Assembly: GCA_964016885.1 (NCBI GenBank)
Contig: OZ024741.1
Coordinates: 343,914,001 to 343,978,000 of the forward strand
Direction of reading: 5' to 3'
DNA: 64,000 bases
Source of the DNA: Eledone cirrhosa
Lineage: Eukaryota
Position numbers and translations under genes: made by a program. The notes under the pieces were generated by a model. The model saw only the letters and a program-made list of their open reading frames with translations, was not told where the DNA came from and did not search any database. Positions 16,083 to 52,345 of this stretch are shown here, piece after piece (the stretch's first letter is position 1; the number at the start of each line of letters is the position of its first letter).

Positions 16083-16127
16083 AATATTGGACTAGTTTCG
16101 ATGTTGTTACATCTCATCAGCAATATT
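16083..16127 (-). ncRNA. Canonical minimal type I HHR with extended stem I
   Basis: aatattg-CTGATGA-gatgt aaca acatc-GAAA-C TA G-TC-caatatt. Stem I extends via 16051-16078 pairing with 16136-16156. Confidence 0.92.
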
Positions 16128-16253
16128 TACCCATCCTCCGGCCCCTCTAGAGAATCGTAAAAGCACATATCGTTATATGCTTTTTCTATGAAAATTAGTA
16201 GTGGGCAGACTAATTTGCATAGAGCGTGAGTACGTACCGGTTCAGCGGAAGCG

Positions 16254-16498
16254 ATAAAAACAAATAACGAAACGAAATTAAATTTCGTTTCGTTTGTAAC
16301 TCACTTTTGTATGACTGACGCTTAAACAATTAAGTTAGAAGTGTACATCCACATATGTATACTGAAATACTAGTATGCATATAAATACACACACACGTAT
16401 ACATATGTGGATGTACACTTCTAACTTAATTGTTTAAGCGTCAGTCATACAAAAGTGAGTTACAAACGAAACGAAATTTAATTTCGTTTCGTTATTTG

Positions 16499-16505
<7 letters not shown>
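16254..16505. repeat. Fold-back inverted repeat
   Basis: 16254-16360 is the reverse complement of 16398-16505. 15860-15945 is a direct copy of the centre. Confidence 0.85.
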
Positions 16506-16542
<37 letters not shown>

Positions 16543-16675
16543 ATAGCCGTCGCGTTCTGACTTTTTTATATAATCATACACTACTATTCTAAATATTGAG
16601 TATTCTATTGAGTAATGATTTAATTAGTTTTAAACTGGTTATATCCTAATTTATATATATATATATATATATAAG

Positions 16676-17572
<897 letters not shown>

Positions 17573-17706
17573 TATATATATATATATATATATACGTGTG
17601 TCTGTGTGTGTGTGTGTCTCTGTCTGTCTGTGTGTGTGTGTGTGTGTGTGTGTATTTGTGTATGTTGTGTGTGTGTCTGTGTGTATATCTATATACATAT
17701 ATATGT

Positions 17707-18920: not shown

Positions 18921-19214
18921 TACCTGGTAGTGCGACAGATAGATAGTTTTAGTAATTGAAAGACCAATGGAAACATTCATACTTCGGTCTGATTTGACAA
19001 AAGTCGGAAGTCGATCCAATGTCGATATATATATATATACAGACACAACTTTATTGTACAGTTCGGCCGCTTAGAGCACAAATGAATATATATTTTAATT
19101 TGTCCATTTCAGGATACAACTATAAGCAATATAATTCTATAAACCCCTTGATTATTTATTTTCTTGTGCTTGTTAGGGTGATGGTCATACCTTCTTATGA
19201 AGACCAAATATGGC

Positions 19215-19260
19215 GATAGACAGCACTGTTTCAAGATTTGTTAATCTCTCATCAGAGGTG
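19215..19260 (-). ncRNA. HHR core without adjacent stem I
   Basis: CTGATGA-g agatt aaca aatct t-GAAA-CAG TG CTG-TC. Confidence 0.55.
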
Positions 19261-19420
19261 TCCACTCATCCAGTAGTAGCGTGACTATCATCTGTTTATT
19301 GTATCTAGACATATATTGTATGTTTTCGTATACACGCTTAATATTTTGAAGGTTCTGCAAATAAAGTATACTCCTAATTGTAATGGTTCACTTATTCTGA
19401 CAAAAGCAAACACACACCTA

Positions 19421-19511
<91 letters not shown>

Positions 19512-19745
19512 TATGCATGTATACGTACATACATATATGTATACAGACGTACAGTAGCACGCACATATATATATATATATACATATATATATACATATGC
19601 ATACAGGTACACATACATATATGCACGTATCAGTTTAGAGGCGCTAACGTCGCTTTGTTCGTTTGTAAACAAACTGAACAGCCTGAATTTATGCCATACG
19701 GTGTTAAGGCAACCACGTCACCTTTTTGTTCAACACTGACACAGG

Positions 19746-19790
19746 AACGATGTACTAGTTTCAAGCTTGTTAGCTATCATCAGCACCGTT
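19746..19790 (-). ncRNA. Array HHR, representative unit
   Basis: aacggtg-CTGATGA-tagctaacaagctt-GAAA-CTAG-TA-catcgtt. Predicted cleavage after GUA, between 19753 and 19752. Confidence 0.93.
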
Positions 19791-19818
19791 TACCCATCTG
19801 CCAGATAGTTGAACGTTC

Positions 19819-19871
19819 GAAAGTATATACTTTCCTTATGAAAATTAACGGCTGAGCAGCCTAATTTGCAT
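19819..19871 (-). promoter_or_regulatory. Putative octamer-dyad plus TATA promoter module, repeated in each unit
   Basis: Minus strand ATGCAAATTAGGCTG-ct-CAGCCGTTAATTTTCAT, then GAAAGTATATACTTTC about 30 nt before the HHR. Also conserved at 16165-16220 and 46740-46795. Confidence 0.55.
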
Positions 19872-20030
19872 ATTGAGTGAGTTAAATCGGTCAGGCATAC
19901 CGAAAACGATAAATTGAAACAAAATGAAAACGAAATTTCATTTCTCACTCTTAGTATGGCACTTACCTAAATGTAAGTATGCATGTATACGTACATACAT
20001 ATATGTATACAGACGTACAGTAGCACGCAC

Positions 20031-20061
<31 letters not shown>

Positions 20062-22365
20062 CATATGCATACAGGTACACATACATATATGCACGTATCA
20101 GTTTAGCGGCGCTAACGTCGCTTTGTTCGTTTGTAAACAAACTGAACAGCCTGAATTTATGCCATACGGTGTTAAGGCAACCACGTCACCTTTTTGTTCA
20201 AGACTGACACAGGAACGATGTACTAGTTTCAAGCTTGTTAGCTATCATCAGCACCGTTTACCCATCTGCCAGATAGTTGAACGTTCGAAAGTATATACTT
20301 TCCTTATGAAAATTAACGGCTGAGCAGCCTAATTTGCATATTGAGTGAGTTAAATCGGTCAGGCATACCGAAAACGATAAATTGAAACAAAATGAAAACG
20401 AAATTTCATTTCTCACTCTTAGTATGGCACTTACTTAAATGTAAGTATGCATGTATACGTACATACATATATGTATACAGACGTACAGTAGCACGCACAT
20501 ATATATATATATATACATATATATATACATATGCATACAGGTACACATACATATATGCACGTATCAGTTTAGCGGCGCAAACGTCGCTTTGTTCGTTTGT
20601 AAACAAACTGAACAGCCTGAATTTATGCCATACGGTGTTAAGGCAACCACGTCACCTTTTTGTTCAACACTGACACAGGAACGATGTACTAGTTTCAAGC
20701 TTGTTAGCTATCATCAGCACCGTTTACCCATCTGCCAGATAGTTGAACGTTCGAAAGTATATACTTTCCTTATGAAAATTAAAGGCTGAGCAGCCTAATT
20801 TGCATATTGAGTGAGTTAAATCGGTCAGGCATACCGAAAACGATAAATTGAAACAAAATGAAAACGAAATTTCATTTCTCACTCTTAGTATGGCACTTAC
20901 CTAAATGTAAGTATGCATGTATACGTACATACATATATGTATACAGACGTACAGTAGCACGCACATATATATATATATATACATATATATATACATATGC
21001 ATACAGGTACACATACATATATGCACGTATCAGTTTAGCGGCGCTAACGTCGCTTTGTTCGTTTGTAAACAAACTGAACAGCCTGAATTTATGCCATACG
21101 GTGTTAAGGCAACCACGTCACCTTTTTGTTCAACACTGACACAGGAACGGTGTACTAGTTTCAAGCTTGTTAGCTATCATCAGCACCGTTTACCCATCTG
21201 CCAGATAGTTGAACGTTCGAAAGTATATACTTTCCTTATGAAAATTAACGGCTGAGCAGCCTAATTTGCATATTGAGTGAGTTAAATCGGTCAGGCATAC
21301 CGAAAACGATAAATTGAAACAAAATGAAAACGAAATTTCATTTCTCACTCTTAGTATGGCACTTACTTAAATGTAAGTATGCATGTATACGTACATACAT
21401 ATATGTATACAGACGTACAGTAGCACGCACATATATATATATATATACATATATATATACATATGCATACAGGTACACATACATATATGCACGTATCAGT
21501 TTAGCGGCGCAAACGTCGCTTTGTTCGTTTGTAAACAAACTGAACAGCCTGAATTTATGCCATACGGTGTTAAGGCAACCACGTCACCTTTTTGTTCAAC
21601 ACTGACACAGGAACGATGTACTAGTTTCAAGCTTGTTAGCTATCATCAGCACCGTTTACCCATCTGCCAGATAGTTGAACGTTCGAAAGTATATACTTTC
21701 CTTATGAAAATTAAAGGCTGAGCAGCCTAATTTGCATATTGAGTGAGTTAAATCGGTCAGGCATACCGAAAACGATAAATTGAAACAAAATGAAAACGAA
21801 ATTTCATTTCTCACTCTTAGTATGGCACTTACCTAAATGTAAGTATGCATGTATACGTACATACATATATGTATACAGACGTACAGTAGCACGCACATAT
21901 ATATATATATATACATATATATATACATATGCATACAGGTACACATACATATATGCACGTATCAGTTTAGCGGCGCTAACGTCGCTTTGTTCGTTTGTAA
22001 ACAAACTGAACAGCCTGAATTTATGCCATACGGTGTTAAGGCAACCACGTCACCTTTTTGTTCAACACTGACACAGGAACGGTGTACTAGTTTCAAGCTT
22101 GTTAGCTATCATCAGCACCGTTTACCCATCTGCCAGATAGTTGAAGGTTCGAAAGTATATACTTTCGAACCTTCAACTATCTGGCAGATGGGTAAACGGT
22201 GCTGATGATAGCTAACAAGCTTGAAACTAGTACACCGTTCCTGTGTCAGTGTTGAACAAAAAGGTGACGTGGTTGCCTTAACACCGTATGCATAAATTCA
22301 GGCTGTTCAGTTTGTTTACAAACGATCAAAGCGACGTTAGCGCCGCTAAACTGATACGTGCATAT

Positions 22366-22565
22366 NNNNNNNNNNNNNNNNNNNNNNNNNNNNNNNNNNN
22401 NNNNNNNNNNNNNNNNNNNNNNNNNNNNNNNNNNNNNNNNNNNNNNNNNNNNNNNNNNNNNNNNNNNNNNNNNNNNNNNNNNNNNNNNNNNNNNNNNNNN
22501 NNNNNNNNNNNNNNNNNNNNNNNNNNNNNNNNNNNNNNNNNNNNNNNNNNNNNNNNNNNNNNNNN
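22366..22565. other. Assembly gap (200 N)
   Basis: Run of N. Confidence 1.
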
Positions 22566-23225: not shown

Positions 23226-23314
23226 TCATATATGTATGCATATATGTATTTATGCATTTATGTATATATGTATTTATGTATGTATGTATGTACCTATGCT
23301 GTTATGAAATAATT

Positions 23315-23605
23315 GTTTCTACTTTTGACACAAAGCCAGCAATTATTCCAGTGTATTACTGGTACTTTATTTTATCGACCCCGTAAGGATGAAAGGCAAA
23401 GTTAACCTGGACCGGATTTGAACTCAGACCGTAAAGAGACGTAACTATGCTAGAAAGCATGGCGTCTGACCCTCTACCGATACTGCCATGAAATAATAAA
23501 CATTATTATCATTTTTGCCTTTCATCTTTACGGGGGTCGATAAAATAAAGTAACCAGTAATGCACTGGTAATTGCTGGCATTGTGCTTAAAGTAGATAAC
23601 AATTA
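23315..23605. mobile_element. SINE family A (minus, 23315-23490) plus inverted partial copy (23515-23605)
   Basis: GCCTTTCATCCTTACGGGGTCGATAAAATAAAGTACCAGT body in both orientations. Confidence 0.85.
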
Positions 23606-23659
23606 TTATCATTACTAAATTGCACTTCAGTGTTTATTATGTGCATTGTGCATCTACTA

Positions 23660-30133: not shown

Positions 30134-30174
<41 letters not shown>

Positions 30175-30176
<2 letters not shown>

Positions 30177-32855
30177 AAGATGAATATAAAATGAAAGTGC
30201 TTTTATAAAGGAATTTATTAGGTATTGACATATCTTTCTGTAACAGACGGAATACCTATGTATCGCTGCTTGCGTAATCATATAATGTTAGCAAGTATTC
30301 GATAGCAAATGTATAATCAGTTGTCACTTCTTCAGAGATATTGGATAAATTGGAAAAAATCAGAAAAATCAAAGTATTTATATTAGTTGTAAGAAAGGAA
30401 GAAGAGAAGGGATAGTATATGACAGGTGGCAATTCAATTTGCTGGTAAACAAGTATATAGAAGGTTTTTAATGAGAATACAATGAGTATATGGCTTATTT
30501 TATCTAAATAAGAATTTTTGGGAGTGCCTATTATAATCTATATTTGACCAAGGGACAGGACTGGTCGTTTGGTGTAGTAGTATTAATACAGTTATAAAGT
30601 GTCAAGTAAGGAAGAGAGAGATTTTCACTGATACTGTATACTAACAATGCTGGTAGCCTGCTGGTATATGCATTAGGAAATTGAAATAAGAAATCTCATT
30701 TTATCTATAGCAGTTTATATTAAATGGTAAATAATAGAAGAGTTCATAGAATTAAGACTAGTAGAGAATGTTAATATGTATTTTGACAATCAAACGGAGA
30801 TGGAGACAGGCGTTCAATCCTGGTAGTGTTTGTAATATGAAAATGTAGATTTCAAGCGATGGTTACAGTATAACGATCGCTCTATTTTGTTATTTAATAA
30901 AATATTTTTGGATTTCATAATACAAAATATTTCCATATTACACAATTTACAAAATTCCTATCCTGGATATTATGCAGGGGCATGAACTATTATATCCCAT
31001 TTTAGGTTAAATTGTTGGTTATTTTCGCGCAGCTGCCAAGCCTTGTCTGCGAGTGTTGTTACATAACACTGGTTTTCATGTTTTATCGAGTAACGATGTC
31101 TATAAAGGCGAGATTTGAAGGAGGCAGCTGTAGACCCCACATAGTACCACTTCTGGCTACCCGATTCGATAGTACATTTGTATATGATGTTGCGTTCAAG
31201 ACACTGATTGTTCAACGGACACATTCCTGGTTGAACACAGTTACAGTTATAATTATGCGTTGTTGTATTACCATGGCTGGGTTGATGAGGTTGCTTAGGC
31301 AGGACGGGATGTTGTTTTGTGATGTTATAGCCGATGTTTTCCGTGTATTGTTATGTGTTGGAAGGCGTTTATACAACCGTTTTGCGTTAAGCTTTTTTAT
31401 ATGTTGTTCAATATGAGGGGCGATTGAATATGAAAGTCGAATAGTGTTAGGGTTTAAGATTTTATTATATTTATGTGATGTTGGAAAATGTTTTTTAACT
31501 AATCGAAAGAATTGTGAGGGTAAATTGGTTTTAATAGAGTTGTTATAGACCGGGTTGTACCATATATACTCTTTACATCGCCTTCTGTTTGGTGGTGTGC
31601 GACTATTAGTGTGTCTATTGCGGTAGTGTATGTATGGTGGTGATTCTATGCTATTTCTACCTCTATGAGATTTATTTTAGGTGTTTTGGTGATCGTCGAC
31701 TCTATACTCTATATTATCTAGGTGTCCAGCCTTCCTAGAGTGCATCATCATAATATTCGGCATGTTCTTTGAAGGTTTGCTGGTTGGACGACAGGCGGGA
31801 GATTCTAAGGGAAATATTTCTAGGGATGGATTTAATTATAGAGGGTGGATGGTTAGAACCCGTATTTACATATTTAAGGTTCTCATTTAGTTTATGGAAA
31901 GGTTTAATTGTTTCTGTATTGAGATTCAAAGTAACATCAAGGAAATTAACCTCTTTGAGGTTATATTCAAACGTAATATTTAATCCTAGTTCCTTATAAA
32001 GCTTTCTAATATTTTTACGCATCCTTTCTAAATTCTGGTTATTCATATGCTTAACTAATAGGAGCGCATCGTCACGGTAGAGTCCACCGTGGCGATCCTT
32101 GCATTTTCCTTGTAGTCTGTGGGTGATATAAATTCCCACAAGATCAGTTACTTCCGCCGAATCATTGGAACCCATAGTTATATCAAAATTAGGTCTATCT
32201 TTGCGAACCCATTAGCTATTATCAAATTTAACAATAGTTTTCCTCGCTTCCATAATAATACTAATTTCATCATCCGTAAGGTCGGAGTTAGCCTTAGCGA
32301 ACGAAAGGGCTTCATGCAGAGTATCAGGTGAGATTGAGGTATAATACTCATCAATATCGAACTGAATAAATTTTGATTTCTTCTTATCAGTAATGCTATT
32401 AAACCATCTTATTGCCTCATGGGTGTTACCCCATAGTTTAATATCTACTTTAGCCTTAACTTGGGGGATAATTCTGTCTAATATATATTGGCTAATTTTG
32501 CTTGTATCAGATTTAGAGGGGCATATAAGTCTAATTTTAGAATCAGTATCGAACTTTACTTTATGGTCCTTCAGGTTGAAGGATGGTATAGCTGGTGTTA
32601 AGGGTTGCGTTCTATCGTCAATACAAAGTTTTTTTAACAATTTTACATGCCGAGTTGTTGATGTTTCTAAGTGTAGCTTCATTAGTTTTCTTGTATTTTT
32701 TATGCAATTCCTTACGGATGAAGTTATTGTAAGTGTCCACATCCATGGTATATACGTTTGATGTTTTGTCTGCTCTAACAATAATTCCATTGGCGTTTAT
32801 TAGATTATTGAGCAGTGCCGTGATGTCATTCTGTAGTTTATTGTTTTTCCGTTTT
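30175..32855 (-). mobile_element. Penelope-like element 3 (same clade as PLE2), 5'-truncated
   Basis: RT and GIY-YIG remnant, 3' UTR, degenerate long-stem-II HHR (30221-30340), AATAAA, and (TA)n on both sides. Confidence 0.9.
30850..32850 (-). pseudogene. PLE3 RT and GIY-YIG, disrupted
   Basis: ADKTSNVY; LKDHK; IRLICPSKSD; FIQFDIDEYYTSIS; MGSNDSAEVTDLVG; GGLYRDD; CPLNNQCLERNIIY...YVGST; CKLCNME. In-frame TAA at 32212. Confidence 0.92.
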
Positions 32856-33106
32856 GTATATATATATATATAAAGAGAGATATTTACGAATAGTTGCCGA
32901 CGACCGCCGAAACGTAAACACATTTTTAACGGCTGCATATCGAGGAAAGCGAACTTTATTTTTATTTACATTCGAACTTCCTGTCTGACAAACGCGTACT
33001 GAATAATCGGTTTATAACAATCTTTCTGTACCTTCGAAATGTACATAACGAAATTACGTGTTAGAATAAAATAATGTTGAATATGTTATACCGTATTTCT
33101 TTCTTC

Positions 33107-33767: not shown

Positions 33768-34092
33768 ATACAAATATATTACACAAATAGAAGTGTGTTA
33801 CACAGTGAAATGTGTGTAAAGAGTTATTACAAGTGATTTTTACCGTTACTGTATAGAAAACTGCACATTTCTGTGGTGAAACGAACTTAATTCGTATCAG
33901 CAAACTTATAGTTATAAGGTTAGTAATTTAAAATCTACTTCAGAGATTTGATTCTGACTTAGGTTTTTTTTCTATTTAATTGCTAAACCTGTAGATATTG
34001 TTTTCTATACAGTAACGGTAAAAATCTCTTGTAATAATTCTTTACACACATTTCACTGTGTAACACACTTCTATTTGTGTAATATCTTTGTA
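33768..34092. repeat. Inverted repeat pair, ~95-bp arms
   Basis: 33768-33862 is approximately the reverse complement of 34000-34092. Confidence 0.85.
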
Positions 34093-34182
34093 TCTGAACT
34101 CAGAAGAAAATTCTCTATTCTTCTTTGAGCTAATATTATTATTATTACTGTGAACTGCAGAACGCTCTTATTTCCGATCCTA

Positions 34183-45519: not shown

Positions 45520-46105
45520 AAATGTAATCTGAGTTTATGGAATATTAATAACATTCGATTCGTTTGCAATTATGCAAACAAACCTCAATTTTATCGCCAT
45601 GTCAGTACAATGAACACTTCATTCTTGCTCTTGTGTTGGCATGCGAACACAACTGCAGACACTAATGTTTCTGGGTATCACCCTTCATCAGTACAGCTCA
45701 CTGTTCACATGTCAAACTGTCAGAGCTAGTGAAAGTATATACTATTTTCAAAAATTCACAGTGACTGGACGGCCTGATTTGCATATTAGCAGACTGGCTG
45801 ATCAGTCAGATCTGCATATTAGCAGATCCACTGATCAGCCATATTTGCATATCAGTCACTGTGTATTTTTGAAAGTAGCATATATTTTCACTAGCTCAGA
45901 CAGTTTGGCAGGTGACCAGTGAGCTGTACTGATGAAGGGTGATACCTAGAAACATTAGTGTCTGCAGTTCTCTTCACATGCCAACACAAGGGCAAGAATA
46001 AAGTGTTCATTCTACTGACATGGCTATAAAATTGAGGCTTGTTTGCATAATTGCAAACGAATCGAATGTTATTATTATTATTCGAAAAACTTAGATTACA
46101 TTTAT
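45520..46105. mobile_element. Fold-back element with two divergent intact HHRs and central octamer repeats
   Basis: HHRs at 45651-45698 (minus) and 45921-45970 (plus): gagctgta-CTGATGA-agggtgataccta-GAAA-CATTAGTG-TC-tgcagttc. ATTTGCAT at 45777 and 45843, ATCTGCAT at 45810. Confidence 0.85.
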
Positions 46106-46235: not shown

Positions 46236-46348
46236 TATAGATGAGATTCTACAGGACTAGAACTGTTTCATTCTTTAGAAATCATCAGGAATCTCAATGA
46301 TGATTTCTAAAGAATGAAACAGTTCTAGTCCTGTAGAATCTCATCTAT
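46236..46348. mobile_element. Short fold-back with HHR (46243-46295, minus)
   Basis: gagattc-CTGATGA-tttctaaagaat-GAAAC-AGTTCTA-GTC-ctgta-gaatctc. The mirror arm lacks the 5' C-T of the core. Confidence 0.65.
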
Positions 46349-46355
46349 ATTAAAA

Positions 46356-46454: not shown

Positions 46455-47075
46455 GATGAAACGAAATTTCATTTCTCACTCTTAGTACAGCTTGTATTTA
46501 AATGTAACTATGTATGTATACGTACATACATATATTTATACAGACTTACGGTAGTATGTATATATATATACATACATGCACACATATATATATATATATA
46601 TATGTACGTATGGGTTTACCGACCATTTATTATAATGCTTGGTTTGTTTGTAAGAGTACTAAGAGTGAGAAATGAAATTTCGTTTCATTCTTTTCCATTC
46701 ATTTATCGTTTTCGGTGCGCCCGGCCGACTAACTCACTCGATATGCAAATTAGGCTGCTCAGCCGTTAATATGCATAAGGAAAGTATATACTTTCAGACG
46801 TTCAACCATCTGACAGAAAGGTATACAGTACTGACGAAAGCTAATAAGCTTGATACAATACATCGTTCCCTTGTCAGTGTTGAACAAAAAGGTGACGATG
46901 GTTGCCTGAACACTGTACGGCGTAATTCGGGCTGTTTGTTGTTTACAAACAAACCGAGCATTATAATAAATGTTCGGTAAACCCATACGTACATATATAT
47001 GTGTGCATGTATGTATATATATACATACTACTGTACGACTGTACACATATATGTATGTACGTATACATACATACT

Positions 47076-47080
<5 letters not shown>
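46455..47080. mobile_element. Diverged inverted pair of the 466-bp HHR family
   Basis: Same octamer dyad and TATA palindrome; degenerate HHR (CTGACGA...GATAC) at ~46825-46868; AATAAA at ~46965. Confidence 0.85.
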
Positions 47081-47116
<36 letters not shown>

Positions 47117-47211
47117 GCATATATGTAGAGGTTATATTTAATTTGTTGGGATACAACAAGCTAAATATTTTTATAACTGATATAAAGCACTCAACAAATT
47201 ATTGGAGTAAA

Positions 47212-47516
47212 TATACAATATATTAACAAATGGAAACTATATTTATCAAACCATATTTATTTCATTATACATATTTCAAGGGCCACCAGAGCAAACTATG
47301 GTGCGCTTTCATTAGATAAAATATAATATCCAGGAGATTCCAACCAGAATGGTTGCATTTGTTAAGGGTATGTCAATATTTATTTATAAAACTAACCTAT
47401 ATTATATTTTATCTGATGAAAGCGCACCATAGTTTGCTCTGGTGGCCCTTGAAATATGTATAATGAAATAAATATGGTTTTATAAATATAGTTTCCATTT
47501 GTTAATATATTGTATA
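47212..47516. mobile_element. Fold-back element with HHR (47407-47468 plus; mutated mirror 47260-47321 minus)
   Basis: ttttat-CTGATGA-aagcgcacca...tggtggccctt-GAAA-T ATGT A-TA-atgaaa, then AATAAA. Confidence 0.8.
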
Positions 47517-47623: not shown

Positions 47624-48252
<629 letters not shown>

Positions 48253-49060: not shown

Positions 49061-49205
49061 AAGTGGTAACACAACAGTTAGTTCACCATACCGAGAATAA
49101 TTGTTTCACCTTAGCGGATCCTCAGCTTGTACTGCAGTATGAGCTGAGGATCCGCTAAGGTGAAACAATTCTTCTCGGTACGGTGAACTAACTGTTGTGT
49201 TACCA

Positions 49206-49208
<3 letters not shown>
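49061..49208. mobile_element. Short fold-back with degenerate minimal HHR (49141-49176, plus)
   Basis: gag-CTGAGGA-tcc gctaa ggt-GAAAC-AATT-CTT-ctc; palindrome centre ~49135. Confidence 0.65.
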
Positions 49209-49244
<36 letters not shown>

Positions 49245-50334: not shown

Positions 50335-50855
50335 CAATTTGTTTCTACTTTCGGCACAAGGCCAGCAACAGCCCAATACATCACTGGTACTTTATTTTAT
50401 CGACCGCATAAGGATGAAAGGCAAAGTTAACCTCGACTTGATTTGAACTCAGACCGTAAAGGGACGTAAGTATCGGTAGAGGGTTGGACGCCATGCTTTC
50501 TAGCATAGAGTTACGTCCCTTTATGATCTGAGTTCAAATCCCGCCGAGGTTAACTTTGCCTTTCATCCTTACGGGTTCGATAAAATAAAGTACCAGTAAT
50601 GTGCTGGGTAATTTTTGGCCTTGTGCCTAAAGTAGAAACAATTATTTATTTCAATTTCAAGGAGGGCGGTGAATTGGCAGTATCGGTAGAGCGTTGGACG
50701 CCATGCTTTCTAGCATGGTTACGTCCCTTTACGGTCTGAGTTCAAATCCCGTCGAGGTTAACTTTGCCTTTCATCCTTATGCGGTCGATAAAATAAAGTA
50801 CCAGTGATGTATTGGGTTATTGCTGGCCTTGTGCCGAAAGTAGAAACAATTATTC
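50335..50855. mobile_element. SINE family A cluster (minus, plus, plus)
   Basis: 50335-50470 mirrors the copy at 50720-50855. Confidence 0.88.
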
Positions 50856-51474
50856 ACTTCAATTTTATCAGTGTTTTAAATAGTCCAGTTTCTCGTGTTT
50901 ATAGACTACTTGATAGACTACTTATTTAGTAGGTTGAATGCCTAACTGGGTATATATATACATACATTGAGTATGCAGACATGTAAGCACGTAAATATGT
51001 TTGATATACATGTTACCCTTTAAATGAAAAACAAATATGAATGTTCGTAATCGATTTTTTTAACCCTAGTTGGAGTTACGTCAGAGAATATGTACATCAA
51101 ACAAACAAAACTAAATACATAAAAGACGGTGTTATATAGTGTTGTATTGTAAGTGTAGTAATAATCAGATCAGTGTATTTATTTTCATACTTTAGAGCCT
51201 ATATTCGTTGCGAAATGCACAGTTTAATATATATTAAAATTCACTACCATTTAGAATTTAACTTAACCATTTCATAAAAAGCGTTTCGTAATTTACGTAG
51301 CAGTGTTCATGATATTACGATGTTACCACAGCTTGGGTGTTAGCCGATATATTGAACTTATACAACCATAAATAATTAATAAATGCAATGTAATTTCCCC
51401 ACTGTGACATGCTTGTTCCATTTCTATGTAGTTTACTATTTTATTGGCTGTTAATAAATAAAATTATTGCTATT

Positions 51475-52345
51475 AGCGGTGGATTGACAGTATGGTTGAG
51501 AATCGGACACCATGTTTTGTAGCATAGAGTTGCGGCCCATTACGGTCTTGGTTCAAATCCTGCCGAGGTTAACTTTGCCTTTCATCCTTACGGGGTCGAT
51601 AAATTAAAGTACCAGTCACACACAGGGGTCGATTTAATCGATTTACCCCTCCCCTAAATGGCTGACCTTGTGCCTATACTAGAAATCATTATTAGGAGAG
51701 CAGGTGGACTGGCAGTATCGGTAGAGGGTCGGACGCCATGCTTTGCAGCATAGAGTTACGGCGCTTTATGGTCTGAGTTCAAATCCCGCCGAGGTTAACT
51801 TTGCCTTTCATCCTTACGGGGTCGATAAAATAAAGTACCAGTAATGCACTGGGTAATTTGTTGGCCTTGTGCCTAACGTAGAAACAATTATTAGGAGAGC
51901 AGTGGATTGGTAGTATCGGTAGGGTGCCGGACAACATTCTGTGTAGCATAGAGTTACGACCCTTTATATTGTGAGTGCATATCCCGCCGAGGTTAACTCT
52001 GTCTTTCATCTTTACGGGGACGATAAAATAAAGTACCAGTAAGCACTGGGGTCGATTTAATCGACTCCCCCACCCCAAATAGATTGCTGGGCTTATACCT
52101 ATATAAGATACCATTATTATTGCCAGGGAATTGACAGAATCGGTAGAGCGTTTGATACAAGGCTTCGCGGGATAGAGTTACGGCGCTTTACGTTCTGAGT
52201 TCAAATCCCGCCGAGGTTAGCGTTGCCTTCTATCCTTACGGGATCGATAAAATAAAGTACCAGTAATGCACTGGGGTCAATTTAATCGACTTTCCTCTCC
52301 ACAAAATTGCTGGCCTTGTGCCTATAGTAGAAATCATTATTATTA
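51475..52345 (+). mobile_element. Four head-to-tail SINE family A copies
   Basis: ~200-220-bp units, each ending in (ATT)n directly followed by the next head. Confidence 0.9.

Follow-up and report, generated by a model that had tools for sequence, protein, structure and literature searches.

The mobilisation of metazoan non-long terminal repeat (non-LTR) retrozymes by Penelope-like elements has been proposed to start from RNA circles, within a cycle of cleavage, ligation and rolling-circle copying (PMC7229834). Such copying by Penelope-like enzymes has been proposed since 2020 on the basis of co-occurrence and in 2026 on that of homology; the recent study covered 31 vertebrates, 3 insects and one coral, argued from homology and co-occurrence, and favoured local amplification by unequal crossover (bioRxiv 10.64898/2026.07.22.740005). 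With regard to the Penelope-like elements themselves, their insertions show partial tandems, an inverted 5'-truncated arm and a tail at one end only, in the Hydra clade hammerheads occur together with a CxCx5C linker and (TA)n is the target, and the Naiads likewise target (TA)n and make tails (bioRxiv 10.1101/2021.04.23.441226). AT-rich DNA is nicked on both strands by the PAc protein, and the two neighbouring internal positions at which this protein starts cDNA are the limits of the genomic tail (PMC11167929). Here we describe an array of 466-bp hammerhead units in Eledone cirrhosa (assembly GCA_964016885.1), found in a stretch of 64,000 nucleotides of contig OZ024741.1 (positions 343,914,001 to 343,978,000, the window below), and the family to which it belongs in the 3.0-Gb genome. 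Rather than a local satellite, the array is one of the two arms of a dispersed insertion. The family is a new one among the non-LTR retrozymes, a class that is already published together with its link to Penelope-like elements (PMC7229834; bioRxiv 10.64898/2026.07.22.740005).

The locus consists of the following parts, in which position 1 of the unit is the first base past the predicted cleavage site.

19508 to 22166, minus strand: long arm, 466-bp units in 5.7 head-to-tail copies that begin at unit position 385 and stop at the short 3' end A (unit 245-251); Tandem Repeats Finder (TRF) and arm mapping.
22067 to 22129, minus strand: type I hammerhead 1, C3 at 22115, predicted cleavage after 22085; core search.
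21775 to 21840, minus strand: tail between the fixed 3' ends A (unit 245-251) and B (unit 305-310), given for unit 1; arm mapping, with the ends as putative reverse-transcription start sites after PMC11167929.
22151 to 22166, no strand: 16-bp palindrome of the unit where the arms meet, centre 22158/22159; sequence.
22151 to 22365, plus strand: inverted second arm with the same start at unit 385, containing the seventh hammerhead and cut by the gap; core search and arm mapping.
22188 to 22250, plus strand: seventh hammerhead, in the inverted arm, C3 at 22202; core search.
19423 to 19507, no strand: (TA)n target microsatellite at end A; sequence.
22366 to 22565, no strand: assembly gap of 200 N over the far end of the inverted arm; sequence.

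TRF gave a period of 466, 5.7 copies and 98% matches over 19508-22166, and the search for CUGAUGA...GAAA...GUA cores found six on the minus strand (C3 at 22115, 21649, 21183, 20717, 20251 and 19783), with predicted cleavage after 22085, 21619, 21153, 20687, 20221 and 19753. Both methods agree with the earlier note on this DNA, which had seen a 466-bp tandem array with six head-to-tail minus-strand hammerheads, and the cleavage position that it gave (19753/19752) is the predicted site of the last unit. Its interval of 19509 to 22365 for a single array fits the long arm, but 22151-22365 is inverted and carries the seventh hammerhead on the plus strand, and its picture of a satellite-like tandem gives way to that of one arm of an insertion. 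Among the five full units, four substitutions set apart variants in the order A-B-A-B-C (letters for unit variants, distinct from the ends A and B), and the last unit has one further substitution and one TA insertion. The unit has a GC content of 36.5%, below the 45-50% used as a bound for retrozymes. It holds no credible open reading frame (ORF), as the note had also stated: the longest ATG-started frames are 48 aa in sense and 112 aa in antisense, and both cross the TA-rich stretch.

The 37-nt core of the array family has 10,294 exact matches in the genome and its reversed sequence none, which answers the copy-number check that the note had called for; a word of the young subfamily has 4,739 matches. 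Arms were mapped first in 59 sources and then in 139 loci with 259 arms (numbered L below), which were picked by pattern search and not at random. A typical insertion consists of two head-to-head arms with an overlap of a few bases at the junction, each arm ending in (TA)n. The 3' ends lie at unit 242-255 (A) or 298-312 (B), about 60 nt apart. Among 88 head-to-head pairs, 53 were A+B, one was B+B and none was A+A, while 34 had an unclassifiable end; four further pairs cut at the locus edge were set aside from this count. Thus 53 of the 54 classifiable pairs had one end of each type (P = 3e-15 for at most one same-type pair in 54). Tail-to-tail neighbours were seen as one pair only, in the first 59 sources. 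The inverted 5'-truncated arm with a one-sided tail is the 'tail' signature of Penelope-like insertions and holds across the family, while at the array locus end A alone is visible. Because the visible long arm ends at A and the pairs follow this rule, the hidden inverted arm is predicted to end at B (about unit 310) in (TA)n. Two other members of the family lie in the window:

16671 to 17574, no strand: second insertion, two head-to-head arms of which one has its B end at 16671 and the other its A end at about 17571, each within (TA)n, with a hammerhead (C3 at 17256, plus); core search and arm mapping.
46459 to 47083, no strand: older, decayed two-armed copy; arm mapping.

A decayed solitary hammerhead-like motif also lies at 19205-19265 (minus), 250 bp off the array end.

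The length of the array itself could have another origin, namely local DNA duplication or assembly expansion beside the gap on a real insertion of one or two units. One duplication of 932 bp would explain the A-B-A-B order, which is local to the array; a rare variant at unit 370 has 15 matches in the genome and shows the 932-bp spacing here only, and the contig stops in the hairpin at the gap. On the other hand, arrays of 3-30 units without a gap and with regular A and B ends are found at many loci, the period-2 order recurs in L084 over nine units, and the hairpin junction of the array has 15 matches at 9 places in the genome, with clean A+B ends at three of the eight loci examined. We regard such an expansion as most improbable, and it would concern the array locus only, not the whole family.

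The motif has the CUGANGA, GAAA and UH core with helices I, II and III in type I order. The core of CUGAUGA, GAAA and GUA and the 7-bp stem I of the earlier note were found as it had described them: helix I has 7 bp and continues beyond a small bulge, with one G.U pair in four of the six minus-strand units. Its 4-bp stem II holds for four Watson-Crick pairs with a 4-nt loop, but the pair 10.1-11.1 is U.U, where hammerheads normally have G-C. This U.U is fixed in the array family, since a different base at 10.1 was found, in this context, in only 31 copies of the whole genome, against the 10,294 exact cores. A canonical G-C master version of the family was sought and not found in the genome, none of the 31 non-U copies being G-C. 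A stem III of 2 bp, also given before, would need a 2-nt loop, and the actual helix consists of a single A-U pair capped by the palindromic CUAG loop. Its computed energy is +5.4 kcal/mol as a monomer and -6.8 for the two-copy duplex. Since closure of the monomer is costly and pairing of two copies favourable, the helix matches the dimer-dependent design that has been described for metazoan type I motifs (PMC4209133). In axolotl, HHR_Amex1 has a palindromic 1-bp helix III and HHR_Amex2 a U.U base of helix II, both weak as monomers and better as dimers, and the U.U base is tolerated in so far as HHR_Amex2 is active (PMC7229834). As two weakening features of the axolotl type are combined here in one ribozyme, cleavage of the monomer should be poor. 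The word 'intact', used of these hammerheads before, would apply to the predicted catalytic core only, with helix III and the base of helix II weakened.

The Rfam hammerhead models, which had been recommended as a check with Infernal, gave no match at the gathering score across the window. Hammerhead_HH9 reached 18.5-20.4 bits (gathering score 52; E 0.1-0.4) in at least five rows among the matches listed (150 of 176). Matches to Rfam miRNA precursors at the level of the E-value were traced to the array hairpin and TA runs and were discarded. The motif is nevertheless not a chance product, because there are 10,294 exact cores against none for the reversed sequence and because the helices covary across subfamilies. 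The covariation set consisted of 12 hand-picked representatives of subfamilies, from the array family and a sister family (F2), with 18 pairs; paired cells amounted to 89.4% versus 77.4% in shuffled and at most 46% in slid controls, both sides had changed at 7 of the 18 pairs and the core varied only at positions 7 and 17, measures that are inflated by the relatedness of the 12 sequences from two families. The pattern of variation is, as far as sequence can tell, that of a selected hammerhead with putative activity.

The sister family F2 is represented in the window by one copy, and the comparison of both families points to conserved parts of the array unit outside the ribozyme.

15862 to 16505, no strand: F2 copy with a 466-468-bp unit, G10.1-C11.1, a GUC site and C3 at 16120 (minus), in two arms ending at their own A and B sites; core search and arm mapping.
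21686 to 21738, minus strand: three blocks conserved with F2 outside the ribozyme (unit 347-358, 372-382 and 391-399); comparison of the two families.

F2 has 7,630 exact cores, so that the exact ribozyme cores of the two families add up to about 18,000 in this genome. Its unit is identical to the array unit at 301 of 466 positions (65%) and has a similar multibranch fold. The ends were A+B in 12 of 14 two-armed loci and of the same type in none. Having the canonical G10.1-C11.1 pair, F2 is a better candidate for cleavage assays than the array family. It also occurs at G000:C1:5737500-5753500 and in L221 and L247-L250, with arms of up to 30 units. The blocks at unit 347-399 are the best conserved part outside the ribozyme and the TA-rich part, and contain words that we take to be octamer-like (88 nt before the core) and TATA-like. 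The spacing between the octamer-like and the TATA-like words recurs before a third hammerhead family at 45.8 kb. The three blocks are a candidate internal promoter of the small nuclear RNA (snRNA) type, a function suggested by their sequence; newt satellite 2 is said, in a statement in PMC2220036, to have an internal promoter of this type. In the very young F2 lineage of L221 and L247-L250, the octamer-like word is lost through three A>G changes inside 6 nt; the lineage nevertheless spread as long identical arrays. The third family itself is two-armed and has a longer helix III (window 45580-46060).

The arms run across the predicted cleavage site, often many times. Genome-wide, 5' ends at the cleavage site gave 13 pattern matches (10 true), versus 24 (23 true) and 13 (7 true) at two control positions. 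A pile-up of 5' starts at this site in the first mapping (5 of 112) was mostly an artefact of the single-unit query, with four of the five flanks continuing upstream, and is dismissed by the negative genome-wide test. Since 5' ends do not pile up there, the cleaved linear RNA is not the template, contrary to what the earlier note had supposed for linear cleaved monomers, and since the arms cross the site, the templates should be circles or uncleaved multimers. The simplest way to reconcile a selected ribozyme with insertions that take no account of its cut is a cycle of cleavage, ligation and rolling-circle copying.

The composition of the arrays is varied. A rare variant is present in every unit of both arms in L197 (7 of 7) and L224 (8 of 8), and in one F2 lineage with four loci 52 of 54 units are identical, in arms of up to 17+7 units. 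Period 2 was seen at the array locus, in L084 (over nine units) and partly in L080 and L205; L081, L202 and L206 are uniform and L196 and L197 nearly so; L195 has block order and L194 in part period 3; L082, L083, L085, L201 and L203 have no period. The arrays with a rare variant in all units, the F2 lineage and the period 2 of L084 speak for circles as the template. A general period-2 structure is ruled out by the uniform, block, period-3 and period-free loci. A footprint of RNA editing of one molecule, considered for the three A>G changes of the F2 lineage, is not supported, since the haplotype occurs at 7 places and no general bias was seen (13 A>G versus 19 T>C in 85 loci of the array family, F1, and 16 versus 15 in 23 F2 loci). 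Both forms of template may be in use.

With regard to the helper, one candidate partner family, separate from the array, is present in the window:

30170 to 32860, minus strand: broken Hydra-clade Penelope-like element with a reverse transcriptase (RT), CxCx5C linker and C-terminal GIY-YIG, ending in (TA)n; protein domain and motif search.

Its GIY-YIG domain match (E 0.007) was below the cut-off. A search of the genome for Hydra endonucleases gave 47,289 first-look candidates. At L246, an uninterrupted frame of 783 aa with the CxCx5C linker lies between two terminal repeats, in which a core-like hammerhead word was seen; its atlas neighbours carry GIY-YIG and RT-associated families, and Pfam gave no significant match to the whole frame. 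A C-terminal GIY-YIG, the linker and the (TA)n target are thus found in this candidate partner. Among the ends of 30 copies of Hydra-type elements, 14 were short, 11 had a tail of about 100 nt, three were elsewhere and two were unscored. Moreover, retrozymes and Hydra elements are joined within single insertions: in L045 the insertion is bounded by the B arm of a retrozyme on one side and a Hydra short end on the other, and in L042 and L113 a Hydra tail end is joined with a retrozyme A end; in each of the three, the two elements together show one short end and one long end. The same rule holds in L058 and L090, where the retrozyme is joined to another non-coding family. The 139 loci contain 11 joins in all, of which those in L169, L085, L143, L049 and two in L173 misfit or could not be assigned. 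A Hydra-clade Penelope-like element as helper is suggestive. The retrozyme could instead be mobilised by another (TA)n-targeting clade such as Naiad or Neptune, which we consider improbable. The habits of the Naiads described above, the join to a different Penelope-like element in L085 and the lack of homology between the unit and Hydra repeats (three families, blastn E<=1) would favour such a clade; all three rule-obeying joins to coding elements are of the Hydra type, and so are the 47,289 candidates, from a survey that covered the Hydra clade.

Other Penelope-like remains lie in the window. The broken coding elements are at 2502-3912 (plus), 9200-10932 (minus) and 30170-32860 (minus), the first GC-rich and of another type and the last with the Hydra linker. 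An element of about 2 kb at 13843-15830 has two arms inserted in (TA)n, one end being short and the other long, and lacks a long ORF; in L058 and L090, its short-end arm is the partner of a retrozyme B arm. Short head-to-head fold-backs in TA runs, several with hammerhead-like cores, are found at 46240-46355, 47660-48145, 49080-49210, 47150-47510, 13590-13720 and 33820-34150, and are probably ends of other Penelope-like families. Outside the window, L085:3675-7164 holds a seven-segment retrozyme arm inside a Penelope-like RT that is of another type than the Hydra one, and 192 bp are present in duplicate, once on either side of the arm and offset.

Taken together, the element is probably a non-autonomous, non-coding non-LTR retrozyme that moves by means of the RT/GIY-YIG protein encoded by a Penelope-like element with (TA)n as its target; the Hydra clade is the most likely source of that protein. 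Multimeric arrays would be transcribed, perhaps from the internal snRNA-type promoter. Pairs of hammerheads would cleave as dimers via the palindromic helix III, slowly in the array family, and monomers or short oligomers would be circularised, as their structure and the known retrozymes suggest. A Penelope-like protein may then nick both (TA)n strands and prime two cDNAs at A and at B, about 60 nt downstream, an enzyme that would account for the observed pattern of ends. Each cDNA runs on past the point of cleavage and ligation, over a stretch of one to more than ten units and on a template that is putatively a circle, and the two cDNA ends are joined head to head by short microhomology, which at the array is the 16-bp palindrome. 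The non-LTR retrozyme with Penelope-type mobilisation that the earlier note had suggested is supported in this by the core counts, the A+B pair rule, F2 and the Hydra-type ends, genomic evidence that is unusually direct for Penelope-type mobilisation.

Several observations weigh against this reading. Ribozyme cleavage and RNA circles are predicted parts of the mechanism, the covariation measures are inflated as said above, and for the predicted fold of the unit (-158 kcal/mol, ends closed by stem I), in itself a point in favour, the z-score of -9.1 is inflated by self-complementary TA runs. Of nine predicted Xenopus hammerhead dimers, one cleaved in vitro (bioRxiv 10.64898/2026.07.22.740005), and PAc used unprocessed RNA, the hammerhead being dispensable in vitro (PMC11167929). 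As for the helper, the unit has no sequence likeness to three Hydra-type families and another non-coding family (blastn E<=1), so that the partner is not identified by homology, unlike in the Xenopus cases of bioRxiv 10.64898/2026.07.22.740005. Three of three Hydra joins obeying the rule would occur by chance once in eight, and L113 came from a Hydra-selected set; among the misfits, L169 is tail-to-tail with HydB and L085 involves a different Penelope-like clade. The chimeras could also be deletions between neighbouring insertions within the same TA runs, and with this rival the assignment of the helper is suggestive only. As for the template, the 30-unit F2 arm (L222+223) is a mosaic, L194 has an ordered mixed string partly common to both arms, L082 and L085 lack a period, and the F2 haplotype tested as private has 70 matches at 7 places, for which a mother array may have been the source; the lack of an editing bias counts on this side as well.

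Mosaic or mixed arrays fit linear multimer templates better than monomer circles. The same element may accordingly be copied by the same Penelope-type enzyme from uncleaved linear multimers of long source arrays, the hammerhead trimming read-through or being lost. This would suit the weak ribozyme, with its fixed U.U and 1-bp helix III, as well as the ordered mixed strings, the preference of PAc for unprocessed RNA (PMC11167929) and the uniform F2 lineage, which includes a 17-unit arm as a possible source. However, a ribozyme that destroys its template should decay, yet it covaries between families at 65% identity; cleaved linear oligomers predict 5' ends piled at the cleavage site, where none are piled; and the array family and F2 have retained a common unit length and a similar fold. 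We consider linear multimers as the template rather unlikely.

A wider form of the circle-based reading can be put forward tentatively, namely that the insertions are a record of rolling-circle reverse transcription. A dimer of the Hydra-clade Penelope protein would start at two fixed sites on a ribozyme-made circle of about 466 nt with its own snRNA-type promoter, each subunit circling up to tens of times from opposite (TA)n strands. If this is true, the equal circle size and similar fold at 65% identity would point to an RNA parasite selected for recognition by structure and not for homology to its helper, and monomer and dimer circles would leave arrays of period 1 and period 2, such as the A-B-A-B order of the array.

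Some further repeats and data sets were noted. L080:5300-6750 holds a tandem hammerhead repeat whose period is 310 and whose palindromic loop is CGCG, the first copy being inverted, and other hammerhead families in the genome have GUAC or CAAUUG loops. An abundant short interspersed repeat, partly tandem, occurs at 23309-23609, 50340-52275 and other places of the window, and presumably resembles the tRNA-derived short interspersed elements of octopus. In the four sequencing runs examined of six listed, near-identical pieces of the unit form 1-5 low-depth contigs each in three runs under other organism labels, one contig being 470 nt, and unit contigs occur at very high depth in one further run; neither has a bearing on expression or range.

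Finally, the array family can be set against the known systems. In the open-access PMC and bioRxiv literature, searched as main texts apart from supplements that may list cephalopod repeats, no description of the family or of two-armed retrozyme insertions was found, in line with the earlier note, which knew of none; the main text of a 2026 paper on Octopus vulgaris repeats does not contain 'ribozyme' or 'retrozyme'. The array consists of non-coding, dispersed tandem units a few hundred bp long, and every unit holds a type I hammerhead, as expected of a non-LTR retrozyme; by these sequence features the family works like one, with RNA circles predicted. It does not agree with the plant LTR retrozyme, in which type III hammerheads in LTRs flank a middle region, since its hammerheads are of type I order and it is made up of tandem units only. 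Newt satellite 2 and schistosome Sm-alpha are likewise tandem hammerhead repeats, compared here by description and not by sequence. Among the closest are the metazoan non-LTR retrozymes of coral, mussel and axolotl (PMC7229834), which also have short, non-coding tandem units of low GC in thousands of copies, one canonical-size type I hammerhead per unit and co-occurring Penelope-like elements. The array unit (466) is, however, longer than their RNAs of 170-400 nt, and it unites the HHR_Amex1 helix III with the HHR_Amex2 base of helix II, which are separate in axolotl. The main text of that paper describes no head-to-head arms with fixed A and B ends in (TA)n ('inverted', 'microsatellite' and 'cephalopod' have no matches).

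The retrozymes derived from Penelope pseudo-LTRs (pLTRs; bioRxiv 10.64898/2026.07.22.740005) resemble the array family in their monomer, dimer and multimer copies and in the link to Penelope-like elements. Unlike there, the link in the array family consists of insertion anatomy and chimeras, without homology to the three Hydra families tested. The anatomy is shared with the Hydra clade (bioRxiv 10.1101/2021.04.23.441226) and PAc/Poseidon (PMC11167929), namely partial tandems, an inverted 5'-truncated arm, a tail at one end, a (TA)n target and a hammerhead in the repeat. In contrast to the Penelope-like elements, as far as these texts describe them, the array family has no ORF, a tail of about 60 nt against their 30-40 and arms of up to tens of units, and its hammerhead is full-size against their minimal type (PMC4209133). 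To the earlier proposals the family adds thousands of insertions with the two-start-site signature of Penelope, joins with the Hydra clade, a lineage of very young age whose units are identical, and the uninterrupted frame of a candidate helper in the same genome. Helper and form of template thereby become testable in one in vitro system, which bears on why Penelope-type RNAs retain hammerheads.

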